Source of the DNA: a bacterium
Lineage (GTDB): Bacteria > Patescibacteriota > Microgenomatia > UBA1400 > UBA12108
Reading direction: 5' to 3'
Assembly (NCBI GenBank): GCA_021788365.1
Contig: JAJYKS010000001.1
Location: 137,962-201,961 of the forward strand
Length of the DNA: 64,000 nt
Numbering within the stretch: the stretch's first letter is position 1; each line of letters begins with the position of its first letter. Below the pieces are notes generated by a model that was not told where the DNA came from, did not search any database, and saw nothing but the letters and a program-made list of their open reading frames with translations. This document shows positions 26,628 through 59,831 of the stretch, piece after piece. The translations under genes were made by a program, and so were the position numbers.

Positions 26628-26718
26628 GACTATATTTTATCAAGATCCATTCGTTCATCTGAGCTTAACCAGATGGTTAAAAGGAATGATTCTGCACTAT
26701 TTTGTTCAATAATTTTAT

Positions 26719-27240
26719 CTATTTATTTATTGGTAAAGTTTTTTCTACCCTCGTGGCAAATTGCATCTTTAGAGCTTCGTCGGTACTCAAAATTTTTCCT
26801 TTATCAAAGGTCTTTCTGATGTTTTTCACCTTTGGTAGTTCCGCTGCCAATATCTCAAAATATCGATCATCTATCTGTCGTAAGAAGTTTGTTGTTTCGG
26901 ATTGTACGGAAATTACCTGTGACTGCTGAGGGCCGTTATAAGTTGGGGGGTGAAACCTTACCCTGCAATTTTCAATTAATGTTTTTTCCTTTCCGGATAG
27001 AAACAATATAATAGCTGCTGAATCTACTTGACCAAAACCTACTGTGTTAAGATTTAATCTTGTAGCTTTGACAAAATCATAAAACCGGATGGCCGAGTCA
27101 ATATCGCCACCTGTGGACGATATGTAAAGAGTAACTTTTACGTTTGGGTCAACGTATAATTGTTTTAATATATCGATAATTGCATCGCCTACGCTTTTTT
27201 CAGTAACCGAACACGGGAACATATACCAATATTTGTTCAT
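26719..27240 (-). CDS. ClpP/S14-like serine protease fold protein
   Basis: YISSTGGDIDSA (INSPGG-like), GFGQVDSAAIILFLSG (GxAASMG-like catalytic Ser region), RFHPP (IHQP-like His). AT-rich gene. Confidence 0.5.
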   Translation of the reverse strand: MNKYWYMFPCSVTEKSVGDAIIDILKQLYVDPNVKVTLYISSTGGDIDSAIRFYDFVKATRLNLNTVGFGQVDSAAIILFLSGKEKTLIENCRVRFHPPTYNGPQQSQVISVQSETTNFLRQIDDRYFEILAAELPKVKNIRKTFDKGKILSTDEALKMQFATRVEKTLPINK

Positions 27241-27316
27241 GATTTAATTTACAATTTTAACAAATTTTTACTTTTAGTATAGCAATGCATGCCTCGGACT
27301 GTTATGAACTGAGATC

Positions 27317-28186
27317 TTATCTATCTATCCTAACTAGCGATCTACCAGGCGTTATCCATTTTTGCGTAACAATTTCTATTAACTTTGAGAAAGGCTCTGC
27401 GTTTACCACCTGAAATAACTCCTGCGCTTCTCTTGTCATTAGGACCTCTCCAACAGCAAACTCTATCTTCTCTTCGTTAGTATTAATAACATAAATCTCA
27501 TTACCGCATTGCACTGGTATTGTTTTGGCAGAACCGACCGTTAGCTTAAAACCACTAATACTGTTAAAGTGGATTAATCCCAGACTTTCTAAGTGCTGGA
27601 GATCCTCAAAGGAAAATGTTCCATTGCTGTATTTAGCCTCTGAAGGGTCAGGAAAAATTAAGGGAACTTTTCTACCCCCGCCAACTATTGCAGTATAACC
27701 GCATATTCTTGAGAAAAGATTCGCATCATCCTGTCGCATATTAGCAAGTATGGACATTGTCTTGTACGAATAGCTTCCATTTCTTATAAATTCACCTGAT
27801 AATACTTTTGACCAAATATTTTGCATTTCTTCATTCGAAATATCTTGCGAAAAATTAAAATATTTCCTGACCCAATCAGTGTCAACTTGTTGATCTATAG
27901 GTTTTCCGCTTTCATGGAGATTTTTAAGAGCTTTTTCGGTAATTTGGTTGATATTCTTTTGATGAATTGTTTCAAGGTTCGCTAACCGATATAAGGCTTG
28001 TCTTTGTAGTCTTGAAACATTTATATCACCCTTCGCTTTTATAATTGAAGCATCAGATTCTGCTTTTGCTTTTCGTCTTATTTTAGTTGGCTCATATAAC
28101 GTATACCCAGCATGTGCAATAATATCGAGCGCTTTTGTAATTGTCTTACTTTCTATATCTATATGAAACGCTAATGGGTTTGCCAT
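27317..28186 (-). CDS. Hypothetical protein (AT-rich accessory gene)
   Basis: 289 aa; no confident motif. Confidence 0.4.
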   Translation of the reverse strand: MANPLAFHIDIESKTITKALDIIAHAGYTLYEPTKIRRKAKAESDASIIKAKGDINVSRLQRQALYRLANLETIHQKNINQITEKALKNLHESGKPIDQQVDTDWVRKYFNFSQDISNEEMQNIWSKVLSGEFIRNGSYSYKTMSILANMRQDDANLFSRICGYTAIVGGGRKVPLIFPDPSEAKYSNGTFSFEDLQHLESLGLIHFNSISGFKLTVGSAKTIPVQCGNEIYVINTNEEKIEFAVGEVLMTREAQELFQVVNAEPFSKLIEIVTQKWITPGRSLVRIDR

Positions 28187-28249
28187 GTTTTTAGCCTTAT
28201 CTATGTTTACAAGATGGCTGGCGCTCCTGAACTATGTGGGAACGTGGTA

Positions 28250-29041
28250 TCAGGTGGCGAGCGTATCTTGATAGTGAGACCACAATATGGGAGAGAACTG
28301 ACTCATCGCCTCTTTTACTTCCGCATATTCTGTGTGATTATTCTCTTCCTTCTCAATCCCATCGGACAGTACGTGACCCAGTACTCTGTCAGCATCCCCA
28401 TCAGCAACAGTAACCGATTCTGCGACTATTGCTAGGAGTTGTGCCGGTGTCGCTGCCCGTGATATAGCCTCATCGAGGATATTGAGGGCTTTGTCATATC
28501 GCTCCCACGACCGCTCACCACCCCACGTTCGCTCGTCATCTCCCCAACCGATCTCTTCAATGAGTGTTCGGGAGAGCGCATAGAGAACCAGACCCGAAAG
28601 TGAAGACATTTCATGCTCGTGTGACGCTGGAACCCTTCCTGGTTCGTAGTACCCCACGGGTTCATCCGACAAACGCGTCTTGGGAGTCGTCAAAGCAGCA
28701 TATAGCTCATTTTTCCCAGCTGCTTTCACTTTCTCTAGCACGTCTCCGGTCACAAAATCACACTCATCGTATCTGCGGCGGGTTATCGCGATACCGTGTG
28801 TCTCAATCTCTTCGACGGAGGGCTCTGGCTGTTCTTTACCATCGTGTTCTTTCCACCATTTCAGCCATTCTTGCCCGTAATAAGCAACAACGCCATCTGG
28901 CTGGGGGCAAGCATGTCTCCAGGCTGAAATGTAGAGTCGCTCCTTTGGAGTAAACTCATCAATCCTAGGATCATCCCCAAGGAACGTGCTGCTCCCAAAA
29001 TCTTTAGGTGTAAGGAATTCCTGTATGTCTGGTTTAGGCAT
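28250..29041 (-). CDS. Hypothetical acidic protein (GC-rich ORF inside AT-rich flank)
   Basis: 263 aa, Trp/Glu-rich; no recognisable domain; composition about 55% GC, unlike neighbours. Confidence 0.4.
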   Translation of the reverse strand: MPKPDIQEFLTPKDFGSSTFLGDDPRIDEFTPKERLYISAWRHACPQPDGVVAYYGQEWLKWWKEHDGKEQPEPSVEEIETHGIAITRRRYDECDFVTGDVLEKVKAAGKNELYAALTTPKTRLSDEPVGYYEPGRVPASHEHEMSSLSGLVLYALSRTLIEEIGWGDDERTWGGERSWERYDKALNILDEAISRAATPAQLLAIVAESVTVADGDADRVLGHVLSDGIEKEENNHTEYAEVKEAMSQFSPILWSHYQDTLAT

Positions 29042-29252: not shown

Positions 29253-30425
29253 CTATTTTGATATATTAGATTGACGATCCTTCCTGAATAACAATCCATA
29301 TAGATAAATTACCGGGAGTGAAAGTATTGTCAAAATAACCAAAGCTTTGGGAGGACCCATGATATCAGCCATTCCACCCAAGAATATGCTCATAACGGTA
29401 AACCCGAGGCTACCACCAAGTGAATTAAGCGAACTCATGGTTGCTCTTTCATGATCGCTAAATTCTTTTTGCATAAGAGTTTTTTCCGATACTGACCCAA
29501 CTCCATACAATAGTGATGGTGCAGCCAAGATTATTGGGGAAAGAACTGTCGGGAACCCGTAAGCGAATAGGCTTACTACTCTGCCAAAAATGCTATCGAA
29601 TAAGAGTATTCTTATTTCTTTGAATTTTCGAATCAGCTTGCCACTAAAAAAGTAACTAAGAGATGCCCCAAAACTTGGTAAGGTTCTAGCTATACCAATT
29701 GCCCAAAGTGGCCAGACGATAGCGGTAAAAGCAGAAGAAAATTCCCATTTGATTTCATTTATGGAATACTCCCAGATAGAAGCTAAACTTAGAAGTCGAA
29801 GTTTCTCATTATGAATAAATAGTCTAAAAGCATTATCAATATGAGCGTAGATATTGGAACTCGTGTGAGTGCGTGGGCGTGGATCAATAAATTGATAGCT
29901 AATATAAAGCGCCGCAATTCCTAAGATAACTGATATCCACAACAAGTAGTGAAATGAGAAACTTGCAACAATTCCTCCAAGGATTGCTGATAATCCCATG
30001 GCGAGTTGTTCGGTTGAACTAACTTTACCCTGATATCCATGGAACTCGCTTTCCAGATGATTATCGGCCAGAGTGTCATAGAGAAAGGCATCGTTGTTGC
30101 CACTGTATAGTGACCGGGATAGACCTTCGAAAATAGCGCCGATGACTAGCCACCAATATGAGGAGCCCACTGCATAAAATATTAAAGCTATAACACGTGA
30201 CCAGGATCCAAGGATAATTGTGACTTTGCGACCAACACGATCAGACCAGATACCAGTTGGTATTTCAAATAAGGCAGAGGTAAGCGTAGTAATACCGAAA
30301 ATCGATGCCCCTAACGCAAAAGAACCAGAGACTCGTGAAAAATAGATGATAGCAAGAGGAGCAAAAAGACTAAATCCAGTAAGGAAGTTGAAAATTGAAA
30401 GTAAATGAACATTTTTCCGGTACAT
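29253..30425 (-). CDS. MFS transporter (possible exporter of cluster product)
   Basis: 390 aa; 12 TM; GIWSDRVGRK MFS motif A. Confidence 0.75.
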   Translation of the reverse strand: MYRKNVHLLSIFNFLTGFSLFAPLAIIYFSRVSGSFALGASIFGITTLTSALFEIPTGIWSDRVGRKVTIILGSWSRVIALIFYAVGSSYWWLVIGAIFEGLSRSLYSGNNDAFLYDTLADNHLESEFHGYQGKVSSTEQLAMGLSAILGGIVASFSFHYLLWISVILGIAALYISYQFIDPRPRTHTSSNIYAHIDNAFRLFIHNEKLRLLSLASIWEYSINEIKWEFSSAFTAIVWPLWAIGIARTLPSFGASLSYFFSGKLIRKFKEIRILLFDSIFGRVVSLFAYGFPTVLSPIILAAPSLLYGVGSVSEKTLMQKEFSDHERATMSSLNSLGGSLGFTVMSIFLGGMADIMGPPKALVILTILSLPVIYLYGLLFRKDRQSNISK

Positions 30426-30467
30426 ATGAAAAGTATATATGGATCAGTGCCTAGTTCGTCTAGGAAA

Positions 30468-31238
30468 CTAGAGCTGTATTTTATTGTTATTAAATTTCTC
30501 TAAGATCTTGATTTCGTTTGACCATATCTCATTTATATTTGGTCCTTTATATAGAATTTCTTGAACCATTTGCAGCATAGGATTATTCTGGTTCGACAAG
30601 TTGAGGTCCAATTTCAGGTTATCTCTTGTAATATATTTATTCATTAAGTCACATCTGACAATTTCTCCTGTCGACATATATAGCAGTAGCTCTCGCTTAG
30701 GATCGCTTGAATATCCCACTTCTATGTCCCACGGAATATTTTTCCCTGATACTAAGTAGAAATACAGATCCACTTCATGTATACCAAGGTCGAAAACTGG
30801 ACCTTCTAAATTAGCTCTATTGGGTTGGAAGCCGAATCTACTACTTCGTATTTTCGAAACGTGGGAAAGATCGACGTTCTTTTTGATAAATGAGACTACT
30901 GGATTATATCTTTCAAGGGTAGATTGGTATAGGATTTTCCCTCTCTCCTCAGCTAAGTTTTCAAGGTTGAGAGATTTATTAACCGATAGACATATAGGTT
31001 TTTCAACAAGTACATTGTAATCACTTTCTAATAAGGTTTTGGCAATGGAGAAATGTGTTTCTGATGGGGTAGAGACGATAACAAGATCAACTGCTGGATG
31101 CATTGAGACAAAGTCTTCTACTGATCTGAAATATGCTTTGTTAGCTATCGAAACAACGTCCACTATGTAATCAGCCGAAATGGCCTTATCATAGTATTTC
31201 CCCATTTTCCCATAACCAATAATGGCGAATTTGGACAT
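30468..31238 (-). CDS. Gfo/Idh/MocA-family NAD(P)-dependent oxidoreductase
   Basis: N-terminal Rossmann GxGxxG (IIGYGKMG); EKP motif (LVEKPI) typical of sugar dehydrogenases of this family. Confidence 0.7.
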   Translation of the reverse strand: MSKFAIIGYGKMGKYYDKAISADYIVDVVSIANKAYFRSVEDFVSMHPAVDLVIVSTPSETHFSIAKTLLESDYNVLVEKPICLSVNKSLNLENLAEERGKILYQSTLERYNPVVSFIKKNVDLSHVSKIRSSRFGFQPNRANLEGPVFDLGIHEVDLYFYLVSGKNIPWDIEVGYSSDPKRELLLYMSTGEIVRCDLMNKYITRDNLKLDLNLSNQNNPMLQMVQEILYKGPNINEIWSNEIKILEKFNNNKIQL

Positions 31239-31239
31239 A

Positions 31240-32310
31240 TTATTCTGCCTCCAAAAATGAAGTGAGTGTTGATGATGCTTTTTCCCAAGTGAGGTCTCTA
31301 CTTAACTGGACATTATTTTTTCCCATGGATTCTCTATTTTCATAGGCCATTGCTATACCATTCCTCCACGAATCAATATTTTTATCAACCAGGGATCCGT
31401 TGATACCATCTTTTAATAACCACCCTATTCTTCCCTTCCCCATAACTATTGGTTTACCTACTGCTAGATATTCGCTAACAGCAATTGGACTACAGTCTAC
31501 TGACACTGGGAACACTAAGACATCAGCAATGTTGGTGTAATTGGGTACTTCCAGCAATGGCACTGCACCTGTCTTTATAACTTGAGGTAAATCTGGCAGA
31601 CTAGCTAGTAGAGGTCCATCACCTACAATAAACAGGAGTTGGTTCTCGTCTATTGAAGAAATAATCAATCTAATATCTTCGTACCATTTACTTAATTTAC
31701 CCGTATAAACTAAAATTTGCTTTTGTTCAAAGCTTATATTGTATTTCTTGGCATATTTTAGCTTTAGTAATTTAATCTTTTCATCTGAATATTTGTAGAA
31801 AATATTTTCATCATATCCATTAGGAATAATTACTGTCTTATTTGTTCTGAGACCTTCTCGTTTAAGTGCTTCAAGCATGGTTGGTGATTGTGTGATTACT
31901 TTTGTTGCTATCTTAATTATGGATTCAAAACCTTTTTTTAATAAGAAATATCTTTCATCTGCTCCAAATTCTGTTAAATACATTTCTTCGTACCAATCAA
32001 TGCAATCAAAAACTATTGGGATCTTAATTGTTGGATTTATCAGAAGTGCACTAAGTGGATTGTCTATCAAAATATAATCATATTGGTGTTTTTGTAGATG
32101 CTGATTTAATTTTTCCTGCTCTATCGATACGTCCGAAATATTGTTTAGTATCTTATGTCTTAAGAATTCGACCCTACACTTACCATCCAAGTGTTGAAGT
32201 AAAAATTGCTCCCTTTGTGGGAAGCCCTGAAAGTACCTTGGCGAAAAATGCTGAATACTTTGTGCGTATACCTTATCACCGACTTTTAGTATCCTTTTCA
32301 TGCAAACCAT
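31240..32310 (-). CDS. Glycosyltransferase family 1 (GT4-like)
   Basis: C-terminal GT-B fold with E-x7-E region (EYLAVGKPIV) typical of GT1. Confidence 0.65.
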   Translation of the reverse strand: MVCMKRILKVGDKVYAQSIQHFSPRYFQGFPQREQFLLQHLDGKCRVEFLRHKILNNISDVSIEQEKLNQHLQKHQYDYILIDNPLSALLINPTIKIPIVFDCIDWYEEMYLTEFGADERYFLLKKGFESIIKIATKVITQSPTMLEALKREGLRTNKTVIIPNGYDENIFYKYSDEKIKLLKLKYAKKYNISFEQKQILVYTGKLSKWYEDIRLIISSIDENQLLFIVGDGPLLASLPDLPQVIKTGAVPLLEVPNYTNIADVLVFPVSVDCSPIAVSEYLAVGKPIVMGKGRIGWLLKDGINGSLVDKNIDSWRNGIAMAYENRESMGKNNVQLSRDLTWEKASSTLTSFLEAE

Positions 32311-33293
32311 TCTTCAAGAGCATTTCTAATTTTTTTCACTTCTCGGTCAGTTAGATTCCATCGATTAGGTACACTAACTATTCTAGACGTCCAATCTGTG
32401 TAATACTTCCTTTCGTTTATAGGAAGAATGTCGTCACCGTAATATACGAGTGTGGCAATCCCCTTCTTCTCCATATACTGCCTAAACTTGTCTCTTTTCT
32501 CTATCAGGAGATTAAACACGGAGTATATATGTCTATCTCCTTTATGTTCGGCCAAGAATGGCTGTATCGTAGGGATTACTTGAAGATATTCCCTGGAAAT
32601 ATCTCGTTGTATCTTAATCCTATCTTCATAGTGAGAGAGCTCGTGTAAAAGGAATTCTGCCTTAATTTCGTCCATTCTTAAATTTAAAGCGATGTTCTCT
32701 GTCATTTTTCCATCTTCTCGTCCGGATTGAATAAAGACTTTCATTTTTTGATACAACTCTTCGTCGTTCGTAACAATGGCTCCTCCATGACCGCATGTAT
32801 GAAGCGACTTGGTAGGGTAGAAACTGTAACAACCCACCACCCCGATAGTACCCACTTTCACCCCTTGAATCTCAGCGCCAAAAGCCTGACAAGCATCTTC
32901 TATTAACACGTTTTTGTCAATTTTGTTGACAAGCCGATTTGGTTGACCATACAAATGAACTAGAGTACTTACGGTTGATGGATCAATAGATATCTTTTGT
33001 TCGAGGATATTTTTGCGATATTTAATTTTGTAGCCTAGTAAACGTGCGGGTTGGTAAGTGGCAGGAAAAGTGTAAGGATCAACTATTAATCTTGAATACT
33101 TTTCTCTTAAGGCCCAATATGCTGCAAGTAGTGAAGATGTCCCGTTATTTGTAAGTAAGACATACTTCACATTTAGATATTCTTTGAGTTTTTCCTCCAG
33201 GTTTCTTATCATGATCCCATCAACCCAGTTGCCGGAATTGTACACTTGGCTCTTATAATCAGAATTTAGTAGGTATATCGGTATATTGTCCAT
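32298..33293 (-). CDS. DegT/DnrJ/EryC1/StrS-family PLP-dependent sugar aminotransferase
   Basis: DACQAFGA and SFYPTKSL (Schiff-base Lys region) motifs. Confidence 0.75.
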   Translation of the reverse strand: MDNIPIYLLNSDYKSQVYNSGNWVDGIMIRNLEEKLKEYLNVKYVLLTNNGTSSLLAAYWALREKYSRLIVDPYTFPATYQPARLLGYKIKYRKNILEQKISIDPSTVSTLVHLYGQPNRLVNKIDKNVLIEDACQAFGAEIQGVKVGTIGVVGCYSFYPTKSLHTCGHGGAIVTNDEELYQKMKVFIQSGREDGKMTENIALNLRMDEIKAEFLLHELSHYEDRIKIQRDISREYLQVIPTIQPFLAEHKGDRHIYSVFNLLIEKRDKFRQYMEKKGIATLVYYGDDILPINERKYYTDWTSRIVSVPNRWNLTDREVKKIRNALEEWFA

Positions 33294-33294
33294 A

Positions 33295-34020
33295 TCATTC
33301 TTCTAAAATAGTTGTGAGCAGCTTAGTTCCCGATGCAGAAATAGGTGTATATGAACTGACCTGGAAGGCCTCGCCGTAGGAAGCTCCCGCAGTATTGCCT
33401 CTCAACGCAAGGCAGCTTTTAATTTTAGACATTAGCCAGTCTTGGCTAGTTTTATGTTCATCTTTAACAGATGCATAACAACTGAAAGCAGCCAACTTAT
33501 TCGCTACGTTCTCACTCGATATTGCAGATATAACTTGAGATTCAAAAGGAGTTGTCATTTCTAGATCGACTTCTCCTTGTAGAATTACTGTTGCACTCCA
33601 TTGAGTTTCCCCACCACATAGTTTGCAGCCACTTTGAAAGTTTGCTTCGGGAATTACTTCCCCTAGAGTACGATGGTCAATATGTTTATCTTTTATGTGA
33701 TGCGTAATTATCAAATCTGGTTTGACCCTTCTAATTTCGCCCATAGTGGCCTGAATTAACCTCCCTTTATCTTTTTGTAGTTCCATATCCACAAAATCTA
33801 GAAAATTTACCTGAAATCCCAATAACTTACTACTAGCTTTCCCCTCTAATTTTGTTCGTAAAATTCGAACTTTTTGTTTTTCGGATGCAAAATAAGCTTG
33901 ATCGTTGTTGGTAAAAAAGCTGACATGAACTTCATGATTTTTCTTAACCAGTTTATCAATCGTTCCTCCGCAAAGGATCGTTTCGTCATCTGGGTGCGCT
34001 AGTAATGCCAGGATTTTCAT
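33295..34020 (-). CDS. PIG-L/LmbE-family N-acetyl-sugar deacetylase
   Basis: AHPDDET zinc-binding motif near N-terminus; downstream HxxH. Confidence 0.75.
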   Translation of the reverse strand: MKILALLAHPDDETILCGGTIDKLVKKNHEVHVSFFTNNDQAYFASEKQKVRILRTKLEGKASSKLLGFQVNFLDFVDMELQKDKGRLIQATMGEIRRVKPDLIITHHIKDKHIDHRTLGEVIPEANFQSGCKLCGGETQWSATVILQGEVDLEMTTPFESQVISAISSENVANKLAAFSCYASVKDEHKTSQDWLMSKIKSCLALRGNTAGASYGEAFQVSSYTPISASGTKLLTTILEE

Positions 34021-34029
34021 TTTGGTCTT

Positions 34030-35747: not shown

Positions 35748-35853
35748 ATTTAATAACTATTATTACGACTGCATAATTCTACTATAGGTTTCCAGGCAGG
35801 TAAAGAGCGTCACCAGGGGTGGTTTCGGAGTAACATTTATTAAATAAATTTCT

Positions 35854-36753: not shown

Positions 36754-36781
36754 AAAAAATATTAGTAGTAAAATATGCTCT

Positions 36782-39168: not shown

Positions 39169-39182
39169 TATAAAATTAGATC

Positions 39183-39902: not shown

Positions 39903-39903
39903 A

Positions 39904-41433: not shown

Positions 41434-41532
41434 GTGGTATATTATATACTAACCTTATAAGGTTATATTTATACGTTAAATAAGTCATATACTATAGGGA
41501 GTTGGGTCAAAGTCAATTTCCAGTCAGAGCAA

Positions 41533-44295: not shown

Positions 44296-44301
44296 AAAAA
44301 C

Positions 44302-51271: not shown

Positions 51272-51326
51272 GAACAGAAATTGTAATTATACCTGGCAAG
51301 TTGTACCTACAAGGTATAATTAGCTT

Positions 51327-52092: not shown

Positions 52093-53430
52093 ATGAACAA
52101 ACATACACCAAAAGAAATCCGTGAAGTGTCGGTGACTGAGTTAAAGCCGGCAACTTATAACCCCAGGAAATGGGATAAGGAGGCTATAGGCCAGCTTACT
52201 GAGAGTCTGACCCGGTTTGGATGTGTTGACCCGATTATTGTTAACAACGCGCAGGGTCGAGAAAACGTTGTGATTGGCGGGCATTTCCGTCTCAAGGTTG
52301 CAAAGGATCTGGGTTACACCACCATCCCTGTTGTATATGTCACTATTCCCGAAATAGAGCGAGAGAAAGAGCTTAATCTGCGGCTAAACCGTAACCTTGG
52401 AGAGTGGGATTGGGAAATCTTGACTCAGTTTGATGAATCGCTGCTTAATGATGTTGGCTTTAGCAGCGAAGAGTTGGACGAGATATTTACGTTAGACCCC
52501 GCCCCCGAGTATTTTGACCTCAAAAAAGAGTTGGCGAAACTTGAAATTTCTAAAGTAGCAATCCAAAAGGGAGATATCTACCAGCTCGGAGAAAGTCGAA
52601 TGATGTGCGGAGATTCCACCATAGAGGCTGACATGCTCAAGTTACTGGGTAACGAGCGGGCGGATATGGTGATGACAGATCCTCCTTATATACTGGATTA
52701 CCTGCACGCCAAGCGTCATGGCGAACCAACAACTGGGTTTGGGGCGAAGAAGAATCGACGCTATTTGGAAACAGACTTTCTCCCCGACAACTTTACCGAC
52801 CTGTGGATGGCTAACATCGCCAAAATTGCCAAGCCTAATTTTTCGATTATTGTCTATGAAAACTGGAAGAACCTGCGAACGATATGGGCTGGGATGGAAG
52901 CACAGAGCTTTAAGGTCCGAAATATGTTGGTTTGGCATATCCCTAACCGCCATCAGGGTTTTTCGGCAAAGTATAAATTCTTTTCGAAACATGATATAGC
53001 GATGGTCGGGACGCAAGGTGAAGTTAAACTTAATCTTGGAGATGAAGAGGAGCTAGTGCAAAACGAGTACGAGACTGCTCTTTTTGCCACTCAAGGCAAA
53101 CCAACTTGGGAAGGATATAAACAAGATAAGAAGAACCAACCCTCTGACTTTATCGAGCACATTGCCTGTGATGCTAAACAGACTGGACAAGACATTATCT
53201 TTGGCACGAAGCCCGTAGAAATTCTAATTCCTTACATTAAAGTGCTAACCAAACGAGGAGACTTAGTAGTCGAACCGTTTGGTGGGAGCGGCAGTACTCT
53301 TATAGCTTCCAGCATGATTAACCGCCGCTGCTACTTAATGGAAAAGTCACCGGTTTATGCCGAAGTGATCAGACATCGCTGGGAGAAGTGGAGCGGACAA
53401 AAGGTGATAAAGATAGAGGAGGCCAAATGA
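52093..53430 (+). CDS. ParB-like nuclease domain fused to N6/N4 DNA methyltransferase
   Basis: N-terminal ParB-N motifs (IVNNAQGRENVVIGGHFRL); C-terminal DPPY (MTDPPYILDY) and SAM-binding EPFGGSGST. Confidence 0.8.
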   Translation: MNKHTPKEIREVSVTELKPATYNPRKWDKEAIGQLTESLTRFGCVDPIIVNNAQGRENVVIGGHFRLKVAKDLGYTTIPVVYVTIPEIEREKELNLRLNRNLGEWDWEILTQFDESLLNDVGFSSEELDEIFTLDPAPEYFDLKKELAKLEISKVAIQKGDIYQLGESRMMCGDSTIEADMLKLLGNERADMVMTDPPYILDYLHAKRHGEPTTGFGAKKNRRYLETDFLPDNFTDLWMANIAKIAKPNFSIIVYENWKNLRTIWAGMEAQSFKVRNMLVWHIPNRHQGFSAKYKFFSKHDIAMVGTQGEVKLNLGDEEELVQNEYETALFATQGKPTWEGYKQDKKNQPSDFIEHIACDAKQTGQDIIFGTKPVEILIPYIKVLTKRGDLVVEPFGGSGSTLIASSMINRRCYLMEKSPVYAEVIRHRWEKWSGQKVIKIEEAK

Positions 53431-53831
53431 CGAAGACAGAGAGCACCAAGAGGAAAGTGCTTTCGTTTCTTGCTATAGCTCCGGTAGTAGAAGTAGCGGT
53501 AAAACGAGCGGGAGTTGCCCGAGCGACCTACTACCGCTGGCGTAAAAGTGATTCTGTTTTTGCCCAAGCTGCTGATGAAGCCATCGAACAAAGTTGCCAC
53601 CTAGTAAACGATCTTGCCGAATCCCAACTAATTAGCGAGATTAAAGCTAAGAATATGACCGCCATTATGTTTTGGTTAAAACACCGACATGCAGGATACC
53701 GCAACAAGCTGGAGCTATCAGGGAAAGTTGAAACTGAGAGCAATAAGTTGTCGCCGGAACAAGAAGAGGTTGTGAAACGAGCGTTAGAAAATGCAGGATT
53801 GCTGCCACTGGAGTCTACTAATGAAACTTAA
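53427..53831 (+). CDS. Putative terminase small subunit (HTH)
   Basis: GAGGAGG RBS before ATG 53427; HTH-like region GVARATYYRWRKS; immediately upstream of large terminase. Confidence 0.45.
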   Translation: MTKTESTKRKVLSFLAIAPVVEVAVKRAGVARATYYRWRKSDSVFAQAADEAIEQSCHLVNDLAESQLISEIKAKNMTAIMFWLKHRHAGYRNKLELSGKVETESNKLSPEQEEVVKRALENAGLLPLESTNET

Positions 53832-55275
53832 TCAGACATATGACCCACGCTTATGGGAACAAATCCGCATAAATAAGGAGCTGAGAGTCAAACTAGCATC
53901 CGAAAGCTTGTATTGGTTTTTCCATCTCTATTTTGGAGAAAATGCGAACTACCCCACGGCTGAGTTTCAAAAAGAGATATATGCAATACTGGAAGACCCA
54001 AACGCTAAACACGTCGTGATCGTAGCTTTTCGCGGATCTGGAAAATCGACAATTGCTACCCTGGCTTACCCCATTTGGGCAATTTTAGGTAAACCGGCTA
54101 ATAAGTTTGTGCTTATTCTGAGCCAGACCCAGTCGCTCGCCCGGTCGCATCTACAAAATATTAAACGGGCTTTTGAGGGAAATGAGCTACTACGGAATGA
54201 CTTTGGACCAATTAATGAAATGAGTGACGAATGGGGATCCACGTCTTTGGTAATCCCGAAATACAATGCCAGAATCAGTACCGCTTCAACGGACCAAAGT
54301 ATCCGGGGAATCAGGCATGGCGCACATAGGCCAGACTTGATTATTGCGGATGACGTCGAAGATATAAGTTCTGTCCAAACCCAAGAAGGACGTGACCGGA
54401 CATACGAGTGGTTTGTATCAGAAGCCATACCAGTAGGAGACAAAGAAACCAAGATTGTGAATATCGGCAATTTACTGCACGAGGATTCACTCCTTATGCG
54501 GCTGCGAGAAAAAATGGAATCAAAGACACTACCTGGCGTATACCGAGAATACCCGATAATCGACAAAAACAACATACCGCTGTGGCCGGGGAAATATCCG
54601 ACTACAGAAGATATTGAAGAACAGAAAAGAAAAATCATGGACGAGCGAGCGTGGTTGAGGGAATATTGTTTGAAAATCGTGGCAGCAGACGGACAGCTAA
54701 TTAAACCAGAGTGGATCCATACTTACTTTAAGTTACCAGAGACTAGTGAGGATTCTTTCTCGCACGCGGCTTTTGCGGTGGATTTAGCGATTACACAAGG
54801 CTTAAATTCTGATTACACAGCGATAGTGTCGGCACACATTTTCCATGATGCTAACGACAAGATCACTATTTACATCTTGCCAAACCTAATAAATGAAAGA
54901 GTGGACTTCCCGACTATGGTGGAGACGGTGAAAATGTTTAAAAGAACATTGCTGCCCAGCCATCGAGTCGAGACCTATGTAGAAAGTAATGGGTTCCAAG
55001 TGTCGCTAGTACAACAGCTTAATAATGAGGGATATGATGATATCAACAGTGTGAAAGTAAGTGCCAATAAGCGGATACGTTTACAAAATACAACTCATCT
55101 TTTAAAGAATGGATCGATTCTTTTCCCACAGCATGGCTGCGAACAGTTAATAACTCAATTAGTAGGTTTTGGCAAAGAAAAACATGATGATTTGGCCGAT
55201 GCTTTTTCACTGTTAGTCAACCAAATAATGGTAAATGAAAAACCGACGCCGGGAATATTTGTTATTGAATACTAG
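53821..55275 (+). CDS. Phage terminase large subunit
   Basis: Walker A-like VVIVAFRGSGKST, acidic IIADDVED motif, C-terminal RNaseH-like nuclease region. Confidence 0.75.
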   Translation: MKLNQTYDPRLWEQIRINKELRVKLASESLYWFFHLYFGENANYPTAEFQKEIYAILEDPNAKHVVIVAFRGSGKSTIATLAYPIWAILGKPANKFVLILSQTQSLARSHLQNIKRAFEGNELLRNDFGPINEMSDEWGSTSLVIPKYNARISTASTDQSIRGIRHGAHRPDLIIADDVEDISSVQTQEGRDRTYEWFVSEAIPVGDKETKIVNIGNLLHEDSLLMRLREKMESKTLPGVYREYPIIDKNNIPLWPGKYPTTEDIEEQKRKIMDERAWLREYCLKIVAADGQLIKPEWIHTYFKLPETSEDSFSHAAFAVDLAITQGLNSDYTAIVSAHIFHDANDKITIYILPNLINERVDFPTMVETVKMFKRTLLPSHRVETYVESNGFQVSLVQQLNNEGYDDINSVKVSANKRIRLQNTTHLLKNGSILFPQHGCEQLITQLVGFGKEKHDDLADAFSLLVNQIMVNEKPTPGIFVIEY

Positions 55276-55299: not shown

Positions 55300-56604
55300 G
55301 TGTGTCCTGCCATGGATACCCCTACCCCATCCCTAAAATATGTCCTGTATGCCCGTAAATCTAGCGAGCAGGATGAGCGACAGGCGATGTCTATCGACTC
55401 ACAAATCAAGGAGATGGGAGAGTTGGCAGTACGAGATGGCGCTACAGTGCTCGATATCCGGCAAGAAAGTCATTCTGCCAAACAATCAGGCCAACGTCCT
55501 GAGTTTATGCGTGTACTACAAGATATTCGAGATGGCACATTTAACGCAATACTAACTTGGGCACCAGACCGACTATCGCGGAATGCGGGAGACCTTGGGA
55601 TGTTAGTAGACCTAATGGATCAAGGAAAGCTTGTGCAGATTAAGACTCCTACCCAGACATTCGCCAATAACCCGAATGAGAAGTTTCTCCTTATGATCCT
55701 ATGCTCGCAGGCTAAGCTCGAGAATGATCAGAAAAGCCTGAATGTTAAGCGGGGAATACGCGCCAAGTGTGAGATGGGCTGGAGGCCGGGGCCGCCACCA
55801 ATCGGCTACTATAACCGGACAATGGCGGGATTAAGGGATATTATTGTTGACCCTGACCGAGGATATGTGATAAAGCAGATGTTTGAAAAGTCTAGGGATG
55901 GATGTGGGGGACGGGCCATTGATCGCTGGTTTCAGGAGATTGGCTTTACGACCAGGAAAGGTAAACGAGTAACCCTATCGCAGATTTACCTAATGCTGCG
56001 GAATCCTTTTTACCATGGTGCATTCGAGTACCCCAAAGGTAGCGGTAGGCTTTACCAAGGAGCTCACACGCCCCTAGTATCGAAAGAATTATTTGAGGAT
56101 GTACAAAAGAAATTAACGGTTCCAGTTAAAGCCAAGTGGGGTGGTAAAGACTTTGCATTTAAAGGAGTGTTCTTATGTGCAACTTGCGGAAGTAGCGTGA
56201 TTGGGGACGAAAAATTACGTAAGCGTAAATGGGCTGAGCCAAAGCGTCATATTTATTATCATTGCACGAGGAAACGTAACTATGATTGCCCAGAGCCCCC
56301 TACCACTGAGGAAGAGTTGACGAGAGAATTAGTCCGCTATATTCGCTTGATTGAGAATGTGAAGCCACAATATATTAAATACTCGCCTCGACTCTCTAAG
56401 CGGATTGAACATTTTAAGAGTCTGCGCGACCAGGTTTTCTTAACTGGCGATGTTGACCCAGACAAGCATACGCTCAGGTTTAATGACTATGTGAAGTACG
56501 TTATGCAGATGGGGAGTTTGGAGGAGAAAAGGGACGCAGTGTTAGCTGTTAACAGACAGTTATATCTCCATAACAAATCAATTATTGTGAGTCCGATTGT
56601 GTAG
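55300..56604 (+). CDS. Large serine recombinase (integrase)
   Basis: Resolvase catalytic domain (YARKSSEQDERQ with catalytic Ser, DRLSRN), recombinase domain, zinc-ribbon CATCGS...YYHCTRKRNYDC. Confidence 0.85.
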   Translation: MCPAMDTPTPSLKYVLYARKSSEQDERQAMSIDSQIKEMGELAVRDGATVLDIRQESHSAKQSGQRPEFMRVLQDIRDGTFNAILTWAPDRLSRNAGDLGMLVDLMDQGKLVQIKTPTQTFANNPNEKFLLMILCSQAKLENDQKSLNVKRGIRAKCEMGWRPGPPPIGYYNRTMAGLRDIIVDPDRGYVIKQMFEKSRDGCGGRAIDRWFQEIGFTTRKGKRVTLSQIYLMLRNPFYHGAFEYPKGSGRLYQGAHTPLVSKELFEDVQKKLTVPVKAKWGGKDFAFKGVFLCATCGSSVIGDEKLRKRKWAEPKRHIYYHCTRKRNYDCPEPPTTEEELTRELVRYIRLIENVKPQYIKYSPRLSKRIEHFKSLRDQVFLTGDVDPDKHTLRFNDYVKYVMQMGSLEEKRDAVLAVNRQLYLHNKSIIVSPIV

Positions 56605-57733
56605 AAAATGATAATCTCATTTGTATTTCCGGAATTACTTTCCCAGTAGGTAGTCTGGCAATGTCGTCAAATACTCCAGATTTGTCGGTCTTGACGAATC
56701 CCATGTGCTCATAAAAGCCAATCGCATGATTGTTATACTCTACAACGTTGACGAGAATGTCTTTAGTGTTGCCCAGCCAAGAAAAGGCAAGTTCGATTAA
56801 CCTCTTCCCGGTACCGGTTCCCTGGTACTTAGGGAGCACATAGATCGCCATAATGCGATTGATACTCCTTTCTTTGATAGCGTGACAGAAACCGATAATT
56901 TTCCCCTTATCTTCGGCTACCCAAATATGAATGTTGGGATCACTGTACCTTGCTTTCCTTCGTTCGAGTTTCGCTTTGGTTTTTACTGGATCATCCTCTT
57001 TATAAACACTTTCAACATCTTCGATAGTGATCCCTGCTTCTTTGTTTGGATAGGTTGCGAGCCAAGTTTGGTGTGCCACCTCGTTAATTCCTGGCAAATC
57101 GTCTACTGCTGAATCACGAATCACGATGTTTTGTAACAATTTCTTGCGGATGGCATTGTTGCTTGTTATTCCGTGATCACCTCCTAGCTTATACAGAAAG
57201 CTCTGCCAGCCAAAAGACTTCGCAGCCTCTACGTTATCTTCTGCATCATCAATGAGCAAGATACTGCTCCCGATTTCATGAATTTTTGTTTCAACGTATT
57301 GAAAGATGGCCGGATCAGGTTTTCGCAGTTTAATATCTGAGGATTCAAAAATATACTCAAAGTTTTCCATACCTTTTATATGTAATAATTTTGGTCCCAT
57401 GTCGTTCCAGTTATTTGTAAGAATCGTTAAATGGTAGCCTGCATTTTTTAGTTCGCTAACTAAATTGATCGTATCTTGTAACCAAAACTCTTCTGACCAC
57501 CACATATCTGTTACTCTACTTAGCTCATTTTGTTTATTAAGTGGTTTTAGAATATCAAGCCATACCTGATCAAAAGTGATGGTGCCAAGTTCTCCGCTGC
57601 CGATATATTTATCCAAAACACTCATGATGTGATTTGAGTCAGTTTCCAAGTGCTTGTTGATTGCATCGAAAGCGCGTTTATAGTCGAAGAGTACTCCGCC
57701 AACATCGAAGATTATCCATTTTGGTTTAATCAT
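56582..57733 (-). CDS. HAD-family hydrolase fused to GNAT acetyltransferase
   Basis: N-terminal IIFDVGGVLFDY (HAD-IA variant motif I), KPD motif; C-terminal GNAT Q/RxxGxG/A (YQGTGTGKRL). Confidence 0.65.
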   Translation of the reverse strand: MIKPKWIIFDVGGVLFDYKRAFDAINKHLETDSNHIMSVLDKYIGSGELGTITFDQVWLDILKPLNKQNELSRVTDMWWSEEFWLQDTINLVSELKNAGYHLTILTNNWNDMGPKLLHIKGMENFEYIFESSDIKLRKPDPAIFQYVETKIHEIGSSILLIDDAEDNVEAAKSFGWQSFLYKLGGDHGITSNNAIRKKLLQNIVIRDSAVDDLPGINEVAHQTWLATYPNKEAGITIEDVESVYKEDDPVKTKAKLERRKARYSDPNIHIWVAEDKGKIIGFCHAIKERSINRIMAIYVLPKYQGTGTGKRLIELAFSWLGNTKDILVNVVEYNNHAIGFYEHMGFVKTDKSGVFDDIARLPTGKVIPEIQMRLSFSTQSDSQ

Positions 57734-58356
57734 AAATTGCCTAGGTGAGCATTATCGTTCCAGGTTTGGAGGTGCCACTTGTTCTCGACTCTCTCTAGAA
57801 GAGTGATTCCAGTATTGGCGAGGTGCATGGTCCCTTCCATAGCCTTATATATTTCAGGGGTTAGGAGGTCTTCAAATATCACATTCCCCAGGATCGCGCC
57901 GATGAATATTCCGTGGGATACAGCGAGAATGTTTTCCTCGCTACGAATACTTATATACTCTAAAAACTTCTTGGCTCGACTAATAAGTTCGTGGATATTT
58001 TCTTCGTCAGAATGGTGCCAAAGCGAATCATGGAGATTGGCTCTAATTTGTGCCCTTATCTCAACTGCGACTGGATCCATTGTGGGCTTGCCTTCGAGCG
58101 TACTAGGTCGTTTGATTTCACGAAGTAATTCGTTGATTTCTAGCTTTACACCCACGTGATTGGCGACAATTTCGGCGGTACTTTGGGCTCGTTTGAAATG
58201 ACTCGTGAGGATGAGGTCGAGCGGAATCGATTTAAAGCGCTTGGCAAGCTCATTGGCTTGGGACATACCTAGCTCAGATAGCGGAGTGTCGGCATGTTGG
58301 TGGATTTTATTCACGTTGCCAACACTTTGACCATGACGTACAAGATACAACTTCAT
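57730..58356 (-). CDS. Histidine phosphatase (phosphoglycerate mutase family)
   Basis: LVRHGQSVGN catalytic RHG motif. Confidence 0.75.
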   Translation of the reverse strand: MKLYLVRHGQSVGNVNKIHQHADTPLSELGMSQANELAKRFKSIPLDLILTSHFKRAQSTAEIVANHVGVKLEINELLREIKRPSTLEGKPTMDPVAVEIRAQIRANLHDSLWHHSDEENIHELISRAKKFLEYISIRSEENILAVSHGIFIGAILGNVIFEDLLTPEIYKAMEGTMHLANTGITLLERVENKWHLQTWNDNAHLGNL

Positions 58357-58396
58357 CCCTATAGTTTATCACCTCGAAGGAAAGTATAATCAAATC

Positions 58397-58927
58397 ATGA
58401 AAATGGTATTTCTGTATGGACCTCCTGCGGTTGGCAAACTAACAGTTGCTAAAGAACTAGCAAAGCTTACTGGCTATAAGTTATTTCACAATCATTTGAC
58501 TGTCGACCTTGTGTCATCTCTCTATGAGTGGGGATCACTTAAATACTGGGAGTACCTGAGAGCTATCCGTGAGGAGCTGTTGGAAAATTTGGCTAAGGAT
58601 AACGTCGATGTTATTTTTACTTTTGTTTATGCAGCTGGTGAAGATGAACAGGTAATGGAGAGAATGTTTAAAAGGATTGAAGAAAATGGCGGTGAAGTAT
58701 TGCTCGTACAACTAACAACTAGCGTTAAAAAATTGAAAGAGCGCATTGTGACTGATGTTCGCAAACAATTTAAAAAGATGTCAAAAACAGAAGCCTTAGA
58801 TAAATGGTTAAAGCAATATAAATTATTTGAAGCGTACCCGAATCGCAAAAATATTATTATTGATAACTCAGACTTATCTCCCAGAGAAACAGCCAAGCTG
58901 ATTGTGGAGAAATACTACTTGAAATAA
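58397..58927 (+). CDS. P-loop NTPase / small kinase-like protein
   Basis: Walker A GPPAVGKLT near N-terminus; 176 aa. Confidence 0.5.
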   Translation: MKMVFLYGPPAVGKLTVAKELAKLTGYKLFHNHLTVDLVSSLYEWGSLKYWEYLRAIREELLENLAKDNVDVIFTFVYAAGEDEQVMERMFKRIEENGGEVLLVQLTTSVKKLKERIVTDVRKQFKKMSKTEALDKWLKQYKLFEAYPNRKNIIIDNSDLSPRETAKLIVEKYYLK

Positions 58928-59652
58928 TCGTGTAGTATTTTAATTTCTTCCTGATAGACTTGTTGGGCTAGGTCGTAGTCCCACGGACTATGATCCTGAC
59001 CTTTTAGAATCATTACGGGCTGAGATTTTCCCTCAACGATATTAATGGTTTTGTTTTTGAGATCATGATCGACATATTTGTCGGTTTCACCATAGACTAA
59101 GTGGATTGCTCCGCTATATGAGTTTAGGCATTCGAAAAAGTTGGCGTCTTTAGCTTCTTGCCAGAATCTGCCATCGTATTTCTGACCTCCTTCTTCGTAA
59201 ACTTTACCTATCATTTCCTCAATATTGCTCTTGGGGTCAGGAACCCAAAGAAGTATGCAGGGTATTTTCCCGGCGATTGCTGGGTTGTGCGTCGCTACTA
59301 CCGTGGCACTAGCTCCCATACTTTGGCCAAGTAAAGCTACTTGATAGCTGAGCTCTAGATATTTTTTCGAAAAATAAACAATAGTTGCCACCCACTCCTT
59401 GAACGAAGAATTGAGGAAATCCCCTTCAGAATTACCGCAGTTGGGCTGATCAAAACGAAGGACAGAGTAGCCTTCTTTTAATAGAAGTTGTGCAAAATCA
59501 ACAAATTGCCTGGCAGGGCCAATCGAGGAGCCGCGAAAGCCGTGGGACATGATTATAATTTTTCTAGTAGGCTCGTCTGGTTCGGAAAAAATACAGAAGA
59601 TTTTCTTCCCGTTTATTTCTTCAAAGTAAACTTTATTGTTGACCATACTCAT
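58915..59652 (-). CDS. Alpha/beta hydrolase
   Basis: GQSMG (GxSxG) nucleophile elbow; HGFRGSS oxyanion region. Confidence 0.65.
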   Translation of the reverse strand: MSMVNNKVYFEEINGKKIFCIFSEPDEPTRKIIIMSHGFRGSSIGPARQFVDFAQLLLKEGYSVLRFDQPNCGNSEGDFLNSSFKEWVATIVYFSKKYLELSYQVALLGQSMGASATVVATHNPAIAGKIPCILLWVPDPKSNIEEMIGKVYEEGGQKYDGRFWQEAKDANFFECLNSYSGAIHLVYGETDKYVDHDLKNKTINIVEGKSQPVMILKGQDHSPWDYDLAQQVYQEEIKILHDYFK

Positions 59653-59831
59653 AGTATAGCGTATTTACTCGAGTATGTTCGAGTCCGAACCGACTAGTTG
59701 AATAACATGATGGCTACCCAGCTCGAGTTATGAGGATTTTGGACGGTAGGGAGAGTTTGGGGGGTTTATCTCGATTTTTAGCGGATAGATAGGTGTTAAT
59801 GATGGGTTACGGTCTCTCGAGGTGTTCGTGT

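Follow-up and report, generated by a model that had tools for sequence, protein, structure and literature searches.

A capsid-less, terminase-encoding integrative element at the 3' end of a tRNA-Gln gene in a Patescibacteria genome

Positions 28,221 to 59,835 of the window (the whole stretch of 64,000 nucleotides analysed here) constitute, together with a shared TG dinucleotide, a 31,617-bp integrative mobile element in a Microgenomates/Woesebacteria-like Patescibacteria genome, the best GluRS matches with a name being from Woesebacteria and Microgenomates. The element is probably a terminase-encoding, capsid-less, helper-dependent phage satellite that carries defence and biosynthetic cargo and was inserted by its own recombinase. 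An occupied copy identical to that of the window is also found in an independent assembly, ERZ27233565.

The limits of the element are given by an empty site. In the metagenome contig L007, window position 28220 is fused straight to the 3' end of tRNA-Gln at 59832 with the element absent, and the extent of the mobile unit follows from this junction; the flanks are 99.6% identical to the window (13 mismatches in 2981 bp). An empty tRNA-Gln site in a close relative had been named in the initial annotation as a check on acquisition at this locus, and its discovery in a near-identical strain proves that an integrative element was acquired there. In the strain lacking the element, the DUF2806 gene abuts the tRNA-Gln(CTG) 3' end; since the entire ClpP-like/DUF2806 block is retained on this contig, it lies outside the mobile unit, and the island start originally placed at 26640 has to be moved to 28221, its first 1.6 kb being kept in the empty-site strain. 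The right-hand limit at the tRNA-Gln gene, with the 3' end facing the island, was placed correctly. The features at the two ends are as follows.

26719..28186, minus strand: ClpP-like protease and DUF2806 protein (Pfam; low GC of 35.6%), outside the mobile unit
28195..28250, unstranded: attL (host B arm and element P' arm), with the crossover TG at 28219-28220 and element DNA from 28221, from the L007 comparison
59790..59860, unstranded: attR (element P arm and tRNA B' arm), with the crossover TG at 59836-59837, from window versus L007
59832..59905, minus strand: tRNA-Gln(CTG), the integration target (ARAGORN; Rfam 53.5 bits)

Sliding GC and tetranucleotide analyses both revealed an abrupt discontinuity. 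The GC content is 51.5-52% over positions 1-26630, 35.6% over 26631-28220, 39.4% over 28221-59831 and 49% past 59832, while the tetranucleotide correlation with the backbone is about 0 within the island versus about 0.8 in the flanks. The sharp compositional island described at the outset was thus borne out, whereas the contrast then given (35% against 57% GC) was too strong, the measured values being about 39% and about 52%. Within the element the GC content is uneven, with 37.4% in the biosynthetic and defence cargo, 44-45% in the terminase and recombinase core and 50.5% in the open reading frame at 28250-29041. It is very improbable that the region is ancestral and was lost from the empty-site strain through a deletion unrelated to site-specific recombination, or that L007 is an assembly chimera. 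The empty site is indeed seen in one short metagenome contig of 3.1 kb, yet its junction falls exactly at the end of the tRNA acceptor and coincides with the middle of a dyad conserved in related elements, the element is foreign in composition, no element cargo was found beside relatives of the core, and an overlap of 6 bp should be unable to make such a join in a de Bruijn assembly at k=141.

The tRNA-Gln gene is whole with and without the element, the sole difference being the discriminator base (A versus G), and positions 59832-59835 (TGGT, plus strand) are element DNA supplying the discriminator A and the CCA. The attL/attR repeats, a search for which was proposed in the initial annotation, turned out to be minimal: neither a long direct repeat nor a duplicated tRNA 3' segment is present at the two junctions, which share only the short sequence TGGYTG, with five of its six bases matching at the two ends. 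TGGCTG and TGGTTG differ by C/T at the fourth base, which puts the exchange within the final TG. The P' arm of attL, GCGCTCCTGAAC...GGGAACGTGGT, has homologous counterparts at the left ends of related elements, GCGTCCTTGAGCCAGAACCGTGGT, and the P arm of attR at their right ends. When reconstructed, attP forms an imperfect dyad around the TG (6/14 positions in the window, 10/14 in relatives), with a GAAC block in the window at the same position as in relatives and a perfect site, GCTCAAG-CTGGC-TG-GCGTC-CTTGAGC, in the related locus L084. Such symmetry about a TG agrees with a large serine recombinase but not with a tyrosine integrase; the Phage_integrase domain of the latter was detected by Pfam in no island open reading frame. 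Judging from these sites, integration would have been carried out by the element's own large serine recombinase via a crossover with a 2-bp stagger at the final two acceptor-stem bases of the tRNA, whereby the P arm of the element would take over the discriminator, CCA and trailer of the tRNA. Neither an excised circle nor an attP junction, proposed as evidence for excision, was found in any of the sequence collections searched, and there were no circular contigs among the related loci.

All five hallmark genes listed in the initial annotation (serine recombinase, both terminase subunits, ParB-methylase and XRE regulator) are present according to Pfam and PHROG, the match of the small subunit being weak, and the strands confirm that the XRE gene is divergent from the core operon.

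50449..50676, minus strand: XRE-family HTH repressor candidate of 75 aa, divergent from the core operon (HTH_3/HTH_19/HTH_31 matches, scored on an identical copy of the gene)
52093..53430, plus strand: ParB_N and N6/N4 DNA methyltransferase fusion, core gene 1 (Pfam; PHROG 498, 4e-82)
53388..53831, plus strand: small terminase subunit (TerS) candidate, core gene 2 (weak PHROG TerS match, 2.8e-8; HTH_Tnp_1_2)
53791..55275, plus strand: large terminase subunit (TerL), core gene 3, apparently intact (PHROG 38, 1.6e-84)
55300..56604, plus strand: large serine recombinase (integrase), core gene 4 (Pfam; PHROG 95 integrase, 9e-63)

The recombinase comprises Resolvase (PF00239, 6.5e-21), Recombinase (PF07508, 1.2e-15) and Zn_ribbon_recom (PF13408, 3.7e-7) domains, and its N-terminal serine motif, YARKSSEQ (residues 17-24), is aligned to YLRRSRQD of SPbeta SprA. 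The best matches among solved structures were SprA and the TP901-1 integrase, the identity to SprA being low (E = 1e-11, residues 17-320). In TerL, for which more than 3900 homologues were found, the Walker A lysine, the Walker B aspartates and the acidic residues of the nuclease are invariant in an alignment of 35 sequences. The arrangement of the XRE gene is the same in the close relatives L177 and L178, with a LexA/S24 repressor at that spot in more distant ones; a promoter scan of the divergent XRE/core region gave nothing above chance.

The reported lack of virion structural genes also held up. Portal, capsid, tail and lysis families had no Pfam match in any island open reading frame of at least 80 aa and no PHROG match in the ten frames scanned (those of the core plus the unannotated frames), and tblastn with the portal and capsid proteins of related phages retrieved nothing from the window. 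Families of primase, Rep or replicative helicase were likewise not encountered among the island reading frames (Pfam; PHROG for ten), four of which are unannotated; no recombination directionality factor was recognisable in the element, and Pfam found no relaxase, coupling protein or type IV secretion family in the island.

The core was further compared with 159 related loci (80 from GTDB and 79 from IMG/VR), in most of which the order ParB-methylase, TerS, TerL, serine recombinase is kept. In the GTDB loci, TerS is found in 80/80, the ParB-methylase directly 5' of it in 77/80 and the recombinase 3' of TerL in 69/80, all collinear; the IMG/VR loci follow the same pattern, the ParB-methylase lying directly 5' of TerS in 61/79. 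At least 51 of the 80 loci bear Patescibacteria lineage names, as given in the records, and the family was found in several hundred GTDB species representatives as well as among IMG/VR "viral" contigs. The layout of this large, mostly patescibacterial family begins with variable, often defence, cargo and a divergent XRE or LexA-type repressor, runs through the ParB-methylase, TerS and TerL, and continues with optional cargo, the serine recombinase, optional cargo again and a tRNA 3' end, with homologous arms flanking the elements. In 29/29 loci the first tRNA past the recombinase is encoded on the other strand and faces it. Those relatives that were delimited measure only about 14.5 kb, half the 31.6 kb of the window element. 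Two tandem TerL genes occur in some relatives.

These comparisons bear on one of the two origins considered in the initial annotation, a decayed prophage, in which deletions would have removed the structural genes of an ordinary phage and left the remainder to degrade on the spot. A phage origin holds for the terminase, the ParB-methylase and the serine integrase alike, and a related species (L174) retains only a ParB_N fragment beside the same tRNA-Gln, from which it follows that decay does occur at this site. Against this, the capsid-less core is found again, its genes intact and its TerL monophyletic, across more than 100 loci of many lineages, the delimited relatives are small, presence or absence differs between strains of 99.6% identity, and separate deletions are unlikely all to have ended exactly after TerL. 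No portal or capsid query from related phages matched any recombinase-linked locus, and the delimited 14.5-kb element of L078 contains no virion genes. In the TerL tree, a single 134-tip clade takes in the 107 recombinase-linked TerLs and none of the 11 portal-linked ones, which makes random prophage decay unlikely. Decay of a prophage in place is thus poorly supported and distinctly improbable. Of the alternative given beside it, a satellite or PICI-like element, the satellite-like reading appears to be the best, whereas a PICI in the strict sense does not fit.

A more serious contender is an unpackaged genomic island moved by a serine recombinase, in which the ParB-methylase, TerS and TerL are kept for another job, either blocking the packaging of invading phages as a form of defence or processing and methylating the element's own DNA, while transfer proceeds by transformation or some other route. 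No helper, circle or replication module was found, defence systems fill the slots near the core (the PDC-S37-like operon of the window, CBASS in L078 and restriction-modification in L178), and tandem TerL genes are odd for simple packaging. TerS and TerL nevertheless stay together, collinear and catalytically intact throughout the clade as a minimal unit of DNA recognition and translocation, and their closest relatives outside the elements are ordinary phage terminases beside portal genes, so that an unpackaged island is considered unlikely, if less so than a decaying prophage. We infer that a helper-dependent satellite is the best reading of the mechanism. Such a satellite would stay repressed in the chromosome and excise upon induction, after which its TerS and TerL would load element DNA into the procapsids of a helper phage; packaging by the element's own terminase is in this respect purely conjectural. 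The helper would belong to a related lineage having portal and capsid genes after the ParB-methylase, TerS and TerL. Phage ancestry is supported by L151, with ParB-methylase, TerS, TerL and portal, and by L140 and L153, with TerS, TerL, portal and capsid.

The remainder of the element is cargo, and the biosynthetic, defence and hydrolase genes mentioned in the initial annotation were all recovered by Pfam, with PADLOC in addition for defence.

28250..29041, minus strand: 263-aa open reading frame at the element's left end, 50.5% GC
29253..43193, unstranded: biosynthetic cargo, a preQ0-plus-aminosugar cluster (Pfam)
43660..50390, minus strand: defence-type operon (Pfam; PADLOC candidate PDC-S37, 9e-63; Cas4-like matches)
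50786..52037, plus strand: OB-fold lipoprotein (tRNA_anti-like, Sie-like) and 236-aa orphan protein, 5' of the core (Pfam, PHROG)
56582..59652, unstranded: right-hand cargo of HAD-GNAT fusion, histidine phosphatase, P-loop kinase-like protein and alpha/beta hydrolase (Pfam)

The biosynthetic cluster encodes an MFS exporter, Gfo/Idh/MocA dehydrogenase, GT4, DegT aminotransferase, PIG-L deacetylase, QueE, QueD and FolE, followed by GT2-like, SPASM radical SAM, GT4 (BshA/MshA-like) and DUF4037-like proteins, and by an HpnJ-like radical SAM protein, a G1P-dehydrogenase-like Fe-ADH and QueC. It gave only sub-threshold matches to NCBIfam, contains no TGT/DpdA homologue and is absent from all related loci compared. 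The defence-type operon consists of a 1529-aa SF1 helicase with an MTES_1575 nuclease domain, a PD-(D/E)XK and RNase_H_2 protein and a HEPN AbiU2-like protein; in relatives, slots around the core hold CBASS (L078) or restriction-modification (L178), and their slot between recombinase and tRNA is filled by unrelated cargo. The 263-aa reading frame had no Pfam, PHROG or PADLOC match and no homologue in 80 related loci, while the 236-aa orphan protein belongs to a family of only 34 representatives and had no fold match, its predicted model being poor (pLDDT 63).

PICIs, including SaPIs, and other phage satellites combine site-specific integration, a divergent repressor, TerS and accessory or defence cargo with the use of helper-phage particles. 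The element resembles them in its integrase, divergent repressor candidate, TerS, defence cargo and lack of capsid and tail genes, with helper dependence presumed. It differs in that its integrase is a large serine recombinase instead of the tyrosine enzyme of PICIs, in having no recognisable primase or replication module, in encoding its own full-length TerL besides TerS as well as a ParB-methylase, in its 31.6 kb, which is above the typical PICI size, and in its Patescibacteria hosts. The cf-PICIs possess their own TerS and TerL, as does the element, but also portal, major capsid, protease and head-tail connector genes; the element has none of these, nor do recombinase-linked loci have portal or capsid genes. 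The PLEs of Vibrio cholerae, phage satellites with anti-phage functions, use a large serine recombinase for integration and may on both counts be likened, by description only, to the element; they reside in integron repeats and are not known to encode a terminase, whereas the element resides in a tRNA gene and encodes one. SPbeta (SprA) and TP901-1 share the three-domain recombinase architecture, yet both are complete phages inserting into protein-coding genes or intergenic sites, unlike the capsid-less, tRNA-inserted element. Tyrosine-integrase islands of the Islander/TIGER type insert at tRNA 3' ends, restore the gene with element sequence, have the integrase near the tRNA-proximal end and occur in tandem arrays (PMC12424338, PMC12884075). 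The element is comparable to them, but employs a serine recombinase with a 2-bp crossover core where the islands have a long duplicated tRNA segment. Among mycobacterial elements, attB sites in tRNA genes were reported to be used by tyrosine integrases, whereas the PICI with a serine integrase shown there does not reside in a tRNA gene (PMC10654092). No description of a capsid-less terminase family was found in a full-text literature search of partial coverage, which is weak evidence for novelty.

The genomes of candidate-phyla-radiation bacteria are tiny, and gene exchange among these bacteria is poorly known. As a tentative generalisation, held with less than even confidence, the family may represent phylum-wide, ancient "terminase-only" satellites that kept no more of a phage than its packaging front end of ParB-methylase, TerS and TerL, with a large serine recombinase evolved to target tRNA 3' ends (Gln, Ser, Arg, Asp, Glu, Lys and Met) in place of the portal and all that follows it, and became a main vehicle for defence systems and even biosynthetic clusters in the reduced genomes of Patescibacteria. 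If true, a complete terminase in elements devoid of a capsid would widen the known range of satellite designs, and the targeting of tRNA 3' ends by a large serine recombinase would fall within a niche classically occupied by tyrosine integrases. Virus-prediction pipelines are likely to score such elements as prophages. Should they be satellites, specific helper phages are predicted among the portal-linked TerL relatives. Genome engineering of uncultivated lineages could benefit from this clade of serine integrases, whose tRNA attB sites are predictable and whose attP dyads can be read, and the family could prove to be a principal route by which defence systems (CBASS, restriction-modification and helicase-nuclease) and metabolic cargo enter candidate-phyla-radiation bacteria.

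Searching public assemblies for exact matches to the flank proteins established the borders of the element. It returned identical occupied copies (ERZ27233565, 100% identity over the retrieved parts, window 15590-36627 and 49936-64000), together with the contig L007 (ERZ27237541, 3,119 bp), in which window 25240-28220 (99.56% identity, 13 mismatches) is joined directly to 59832-59974, the tRNA-Gln. L007 is an empty site, the comparison that the initial annotation had called for, and the insert measures 31,617 bp. A scan of GTDB genomes for further empty sites using the right-flank DUF8173 protein returned no relatives. The left border, previously placed at 26640, has to be moved inwards, since the empty-site strain also carries the low-GC pair encoding a ClpP-like protease and a DUF2806 protein (26631-28220, 35.6% GC), which thus lies outside the mobile unit. 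This block may be what is left of an earlier element inserted at that tRNA; the 12 bases beside the tRNA in the empty-site strain (GCCATCTTGTAA) agree at 9 of 12 positions with the right-end (P) arm of related elements. A motif resembling the left-end (P') arm was sought at the 26.6-kb GC edge and nothing above chance was found, so that no borders of an older element can be assigned to the block.

The compositional discontinuity described earlier was confirmed by both GC and tetranucleotide profiles, although its size (35% against 57%) had been overstated: GC content is 51.5-52% up to 26,630, 35.6% in 26,631-28,220, 39.4% in 28,221-59,831, and about 49% beyond, and 4-kb windows correlate with the backbone in tetranucleotide profile at about 0.8 outside the island and about 0 inside. 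Within the island, GC is uneven, being 37.4% in the biosynthetic and defence cargo, 44.9% in the block from the ParB_N-methyltransferase (ParB-methylase) to the recombinase, and 40.9% in the right-hand cargo, with one ORF at the left end reaching 50.5%. The alternative that the island is an ancestral region deleted in the empty-site strain is poorly supported alongside these profiles and the L007 junction. For the glutamyl-tRNA synthetase encoded in the backbone just past the window, the best named matches are from Candidatus Woesebacteria (76%) and from members of the Microgenomates group (66-69%), which identifies the host as a Patescibacteria (CPR) bacterium. Elsewhere in the window, positions 1-1000 have 40.5% GC against about 52% in the adjoining backbone and may mark the border of a further foreign segment, and an EamA transporter gene (62168-63157, 38% GC) is absent from the syntenic region of four related-species contigs (L172-L175) and therefore looks like a separate small insertion.

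Gene content of the island from left to right
Left end, first gene: 263-aa orphan
29253-43193, second from the left: 14-kb biosynthetic cluster, with FolE, QueD, QueE and QueC (full GTP-to-preQ0 pathway); two GT4 (one BshA/MshA-like) and one GT2-like glycosyltransferases; DegT aminotransferase, PIG-L deacetylase and Gfo/Idh/MocA dehydrogenase; among these a BshB-like enzyme and a sugar dehydrogenase; SPASM radical SAM, HpnJ-like radical SAM, G1P-dehydrogenase-like protein and MFS exporter
43660-50676, minus strand: defence operon headed by a 75-aa XRE regulator, with a HEPN AbiU2-like protein, a PD-(D/E)XK + RNase_H_2 protein and a 1529-aa helicase-nuclease (PADLOC candidate PDC-S37, 9e-63)
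Divergent from the XRE operon, in this order: OB-fold lipoprotein, 236-aa orphan, ParB-methylase, TerS, TerL (PHROG 38, 1.6e-84) and large serine recombinase (434 aa)
Between recombinase and tRNA: right-hand cargo of four hydrolase/transferase genes
59832-59905, minus strand: tRNA-Gln(CTG), 3' end toward the island, as first annotated

Searches of the island genes turned up no family of portal, capsid, tail, lysis, relaxase, primase, or tyrosine-integrase proteins, which bears out the original remark that virion structural genes are missing. The tRNA was the sole RNA found by Rfam, with no riboswitch or other RNA, and a promoter scan around the XRE gene gave no signal over the shuffled expectation. 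The 236-aa protein beside the core belongs to an orphan family with three close and 34 distant representatives; a fold search found no match, and its predicted model is poor (pLDDT 63). None of ten biosynthetic enzymes reached an NCBIfam curated cut-off, so the product of the cluster cannot be named; its enzyme content suggests a 7-deazaguanine glycoside or an aminocyclitol natural product, and such biosynthetic cargo is unusual for a reduced CPR genome. A Dpd-type DNA-modification role for the preQ0 genes was rejected, as the gene content includes no TGT/DpdA homologue.

The left junction reads aagaTGGCTG/gcgctcc, the right gtgtTGGTTG/cgggac, and the empty site aagaTGGCTG/cgggac, with TGGYTG alone common to both junctions. 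Exchange in the last TG would account for the C/T difference (TGGCTG against TGGTTG) with no additional mutation. In terms of the tRNA, the crossover is the CA closing the acceptor stem, and the new discriminator (A for G), the CCA, and the trailer are all supplied by the element. The discriminator of the tRNA-Gln is thus G at the empty site in L007 and A when occupied (59832-59835), with the CCA retained. For the window element, the attP is predicted to be GTTACGGTCTCTCGAGGTGTTCGTGTTGGT-TG-GCGCTCCTGAACTATGTGGGAACGTGGTAT and the attB, the empty host site, ctatgtttacaagatggc-TG-cgggacagggattcgaaccc. Four related Saccharibacteria/Paceibacterota elements, delimited where their mutual similarity begins and ends, have right ends of the form ..GCTCAAGTTGGC-TG-tRNA and left ends of the form flank-TG-GCGTCCTTGAGCC.., and the attP rebuilt from such ends is dyad-symmetric around TG at 10 of 14 positions. 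The window attP is symmetric at 6 of 14, its GAAC block being equally distant from TG as in the relatives, and its arms are visibly homologous to theirs. Large serine recombinases exchange strands at a 2-bp crossover within imperfect inverted repeats. The recombinase of the island has the three domains of this class complete, with the N-terminal serine motif, and the att features fit large serine recombinases and not tyrosine integrases. Insertion at the 3' end of the tRNA, with junctions of the serine type, is demonstrated.

The same arrangement recurs in a large family. TerL homologues number more than 3,900, and a profile scan covering GTDB at one genome per species yielded at least 586 loci, the best 80 of which were taken with 10-kb flanks and searched by tblastn with all island proteins. 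TerS was found in all 80, the ParB-methylase in 77, and the recombinase in 69. The genes are collinear and share one strand, save for two upstream recombinase matches and one reversed, and TerL is separated from the recombinase by 0.1-9 kb of variable DNA; the cargo genes of the window were found in none of the 80 loci. Fifty-one of the 80 loci bear record titles of Patescibacteria lineages (Saccharibacteria, Paceibacteria, Dojka-, Woese-, Doudna-, Gracilibacteria, and others), and IMG/VR added 223 relatives with the same pattern. Clustering of the ORFs over the 80 loci revealed no further widely conserved gene save a divergent LexA/S24 repressor, present in 35. In L177 and L178, the two nearest relatives whose context is available (TerL 72% and 63% identical), an XRE gene takes the LexA/S24 position, with other defence cargo behind. 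No two of the elements examined share a defence system in this slot: the window has a PDC-S37-like helicase-nuclease together with HEPN (43660-50676), L078 has CBASS (Cap15 and CD-NTase; 4357-6795), and L178 has type I/IIG restriction-modification (392-5706). The slot appears to be a hotspot for defence cargo. Nine loci (L015, L024, L105, L106, L107, L116, L118, L133, and L148) carry two tandem full-length TerL genes between TerS and recombinase, an arrangement for which we know of no precedent and which could be an adaptation to two helper phages.

The first tRNA downstream of the recombinase lies 0.1-8 kb away on the opposite strand in 29 of 29 loci that have such a tRNA (22 from GTDB and seven from IMG/VR), which has a probability of about 2e-9 if orientation were random; the types are Ser (14), Gln (8), Asp (2), Glu (2), Arg, Lys, and Met (one each). 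Tandem arrays occur, as seen in L084 (~3976-4110), in which a perfect attP-like dyad, GCTCAAG-CTGGC-TG-GCGTC-CTTGAGC, lies where one element meets the right-end remnant of another, and in L017 (2275-7250), where recombinase and tRNA-Arg are followed within 3.4 kb by another tRNA-Arg copy and a further core module.

The phage ancestry of the core was demonstrated through phage contigs whose TerL is 35-43% identical (L140, L151, L153, and others), in which portal (PHROG 2662, 1e-120) and major capsid (PHROG 10, 6e-90) genes directly follow TerL; the order in L151 is ParB-methylase, TerS, TerL, portal. When the phage portal, scaffold, and capsid proteins were used as tblastn queries against 159 loci and the window, matches were confined to phage contigs, with none in a recombinase-linked locus. 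In a neighbour-joining tree of 150 TerLs, all 107 recombinase-linked sequences fall inside a clade of 134 tips, which includes none of the 11 portal-linked ones, and no substitution occurs at the ATPase or nuclease catalytic residues across an alignment of 35 sequences. The 14.5-kb L078 element, which terminates at tRNA-Gln, is filled by its CBASS, LexA, a 210-aa protein, the four core genes, a MacB/ABC/HlyD exporter, and an ECF sigma factor, with no space left for a virion module. The core, capsid-less with an intact terminase, is thus conserved while the cargo slots vary, and random prophage decay is a poorly supported explanation. Decay products also differ in look from intact family members, judging by L174 (11958-13571), from a species with 79% GluRS identity, where the syntenic tRNA-Gln is followed by a 359-aa ORF and an 85-aa ParB_N fragment that matches the beginning of the window ParB-methylase at 53% identity. 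This is a decayed relative at the same tRNA-Gln site, which is therefore a recurrent target.

The circular junction suggested earlier as evidence of excision was not found in the collections searched. The leftmost (263-aa) and rightmost (hydrolase) genes of the element retrieved the integrated form only, exact searches of JGI metagenomes and IMG/VR with the attP sequences predicted for the window element and for L057-type elements gave no match, and no related contig bears terminal repeats indicative of circularity. The contig L002 (ERZ27233560 k141_659119; 1-3612) fuses window 59070-59515 to 54539-57704 at the 6-bp microhomology CCTGGC (54532-54538 and 59509-59515). This 59515/54539 junction is head-to-tail over a 4,977-bp segment with the recombinase, cuts inside TerL and the alpha/beta hydrolase, has arms unlike the att arms, and is compatible with a circle, a tandem duplication, or a chimera formed in the library.

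Among known systems, the element has all the sequence-level features of a large serine recombinase integrative element and the position of a tRNA-inserted island, but lacks the tyrosine integrase and long direct repeat usual for the latter. It has no conjugation genes, unlike ICEs and IMEs, and no capsid or portal genes, unlike cf-PICIs and prophages; it departs from PICIs in integrase family and replication module, and goes beyond them in carrying TerL. In its workings it most resembles a phage satellite of the PICI, PICMI, or PLE type. Full-text literature searches found no description of a terminase and serine-recombinase module in Patescibacteria, and this capsid-less family is apparently undescribed; one study reports VIBRANT-predicted "prophages" in Saccharibacteria without analysis of such modules (PMC10746230).

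In the proposed cycle, the recombinase would catalyse integration and excision, the repressor would hold the core operon off, and, after induction, TerS and TerL would load the element into capsids from a helper phage, one of the sister lineage whose TerL is linked to portal genes. That the island is an integrative element and belongs to this family is held with high confidence; the satellite step, packaging by TerS/TerL into helper capsids, is put forward tentatively, as somewhat short of an even chance. Its main rival holds that the island is not packaged and that the terminase module does another job, such as packaging interference as defence. The initial interpretation was largely right once its left border is corrected, and the island is an unusually cargo-rich member of a large capsid-less family in Patescibacteria that encodes a terminase and a tRNA-targeting serine recombinase.
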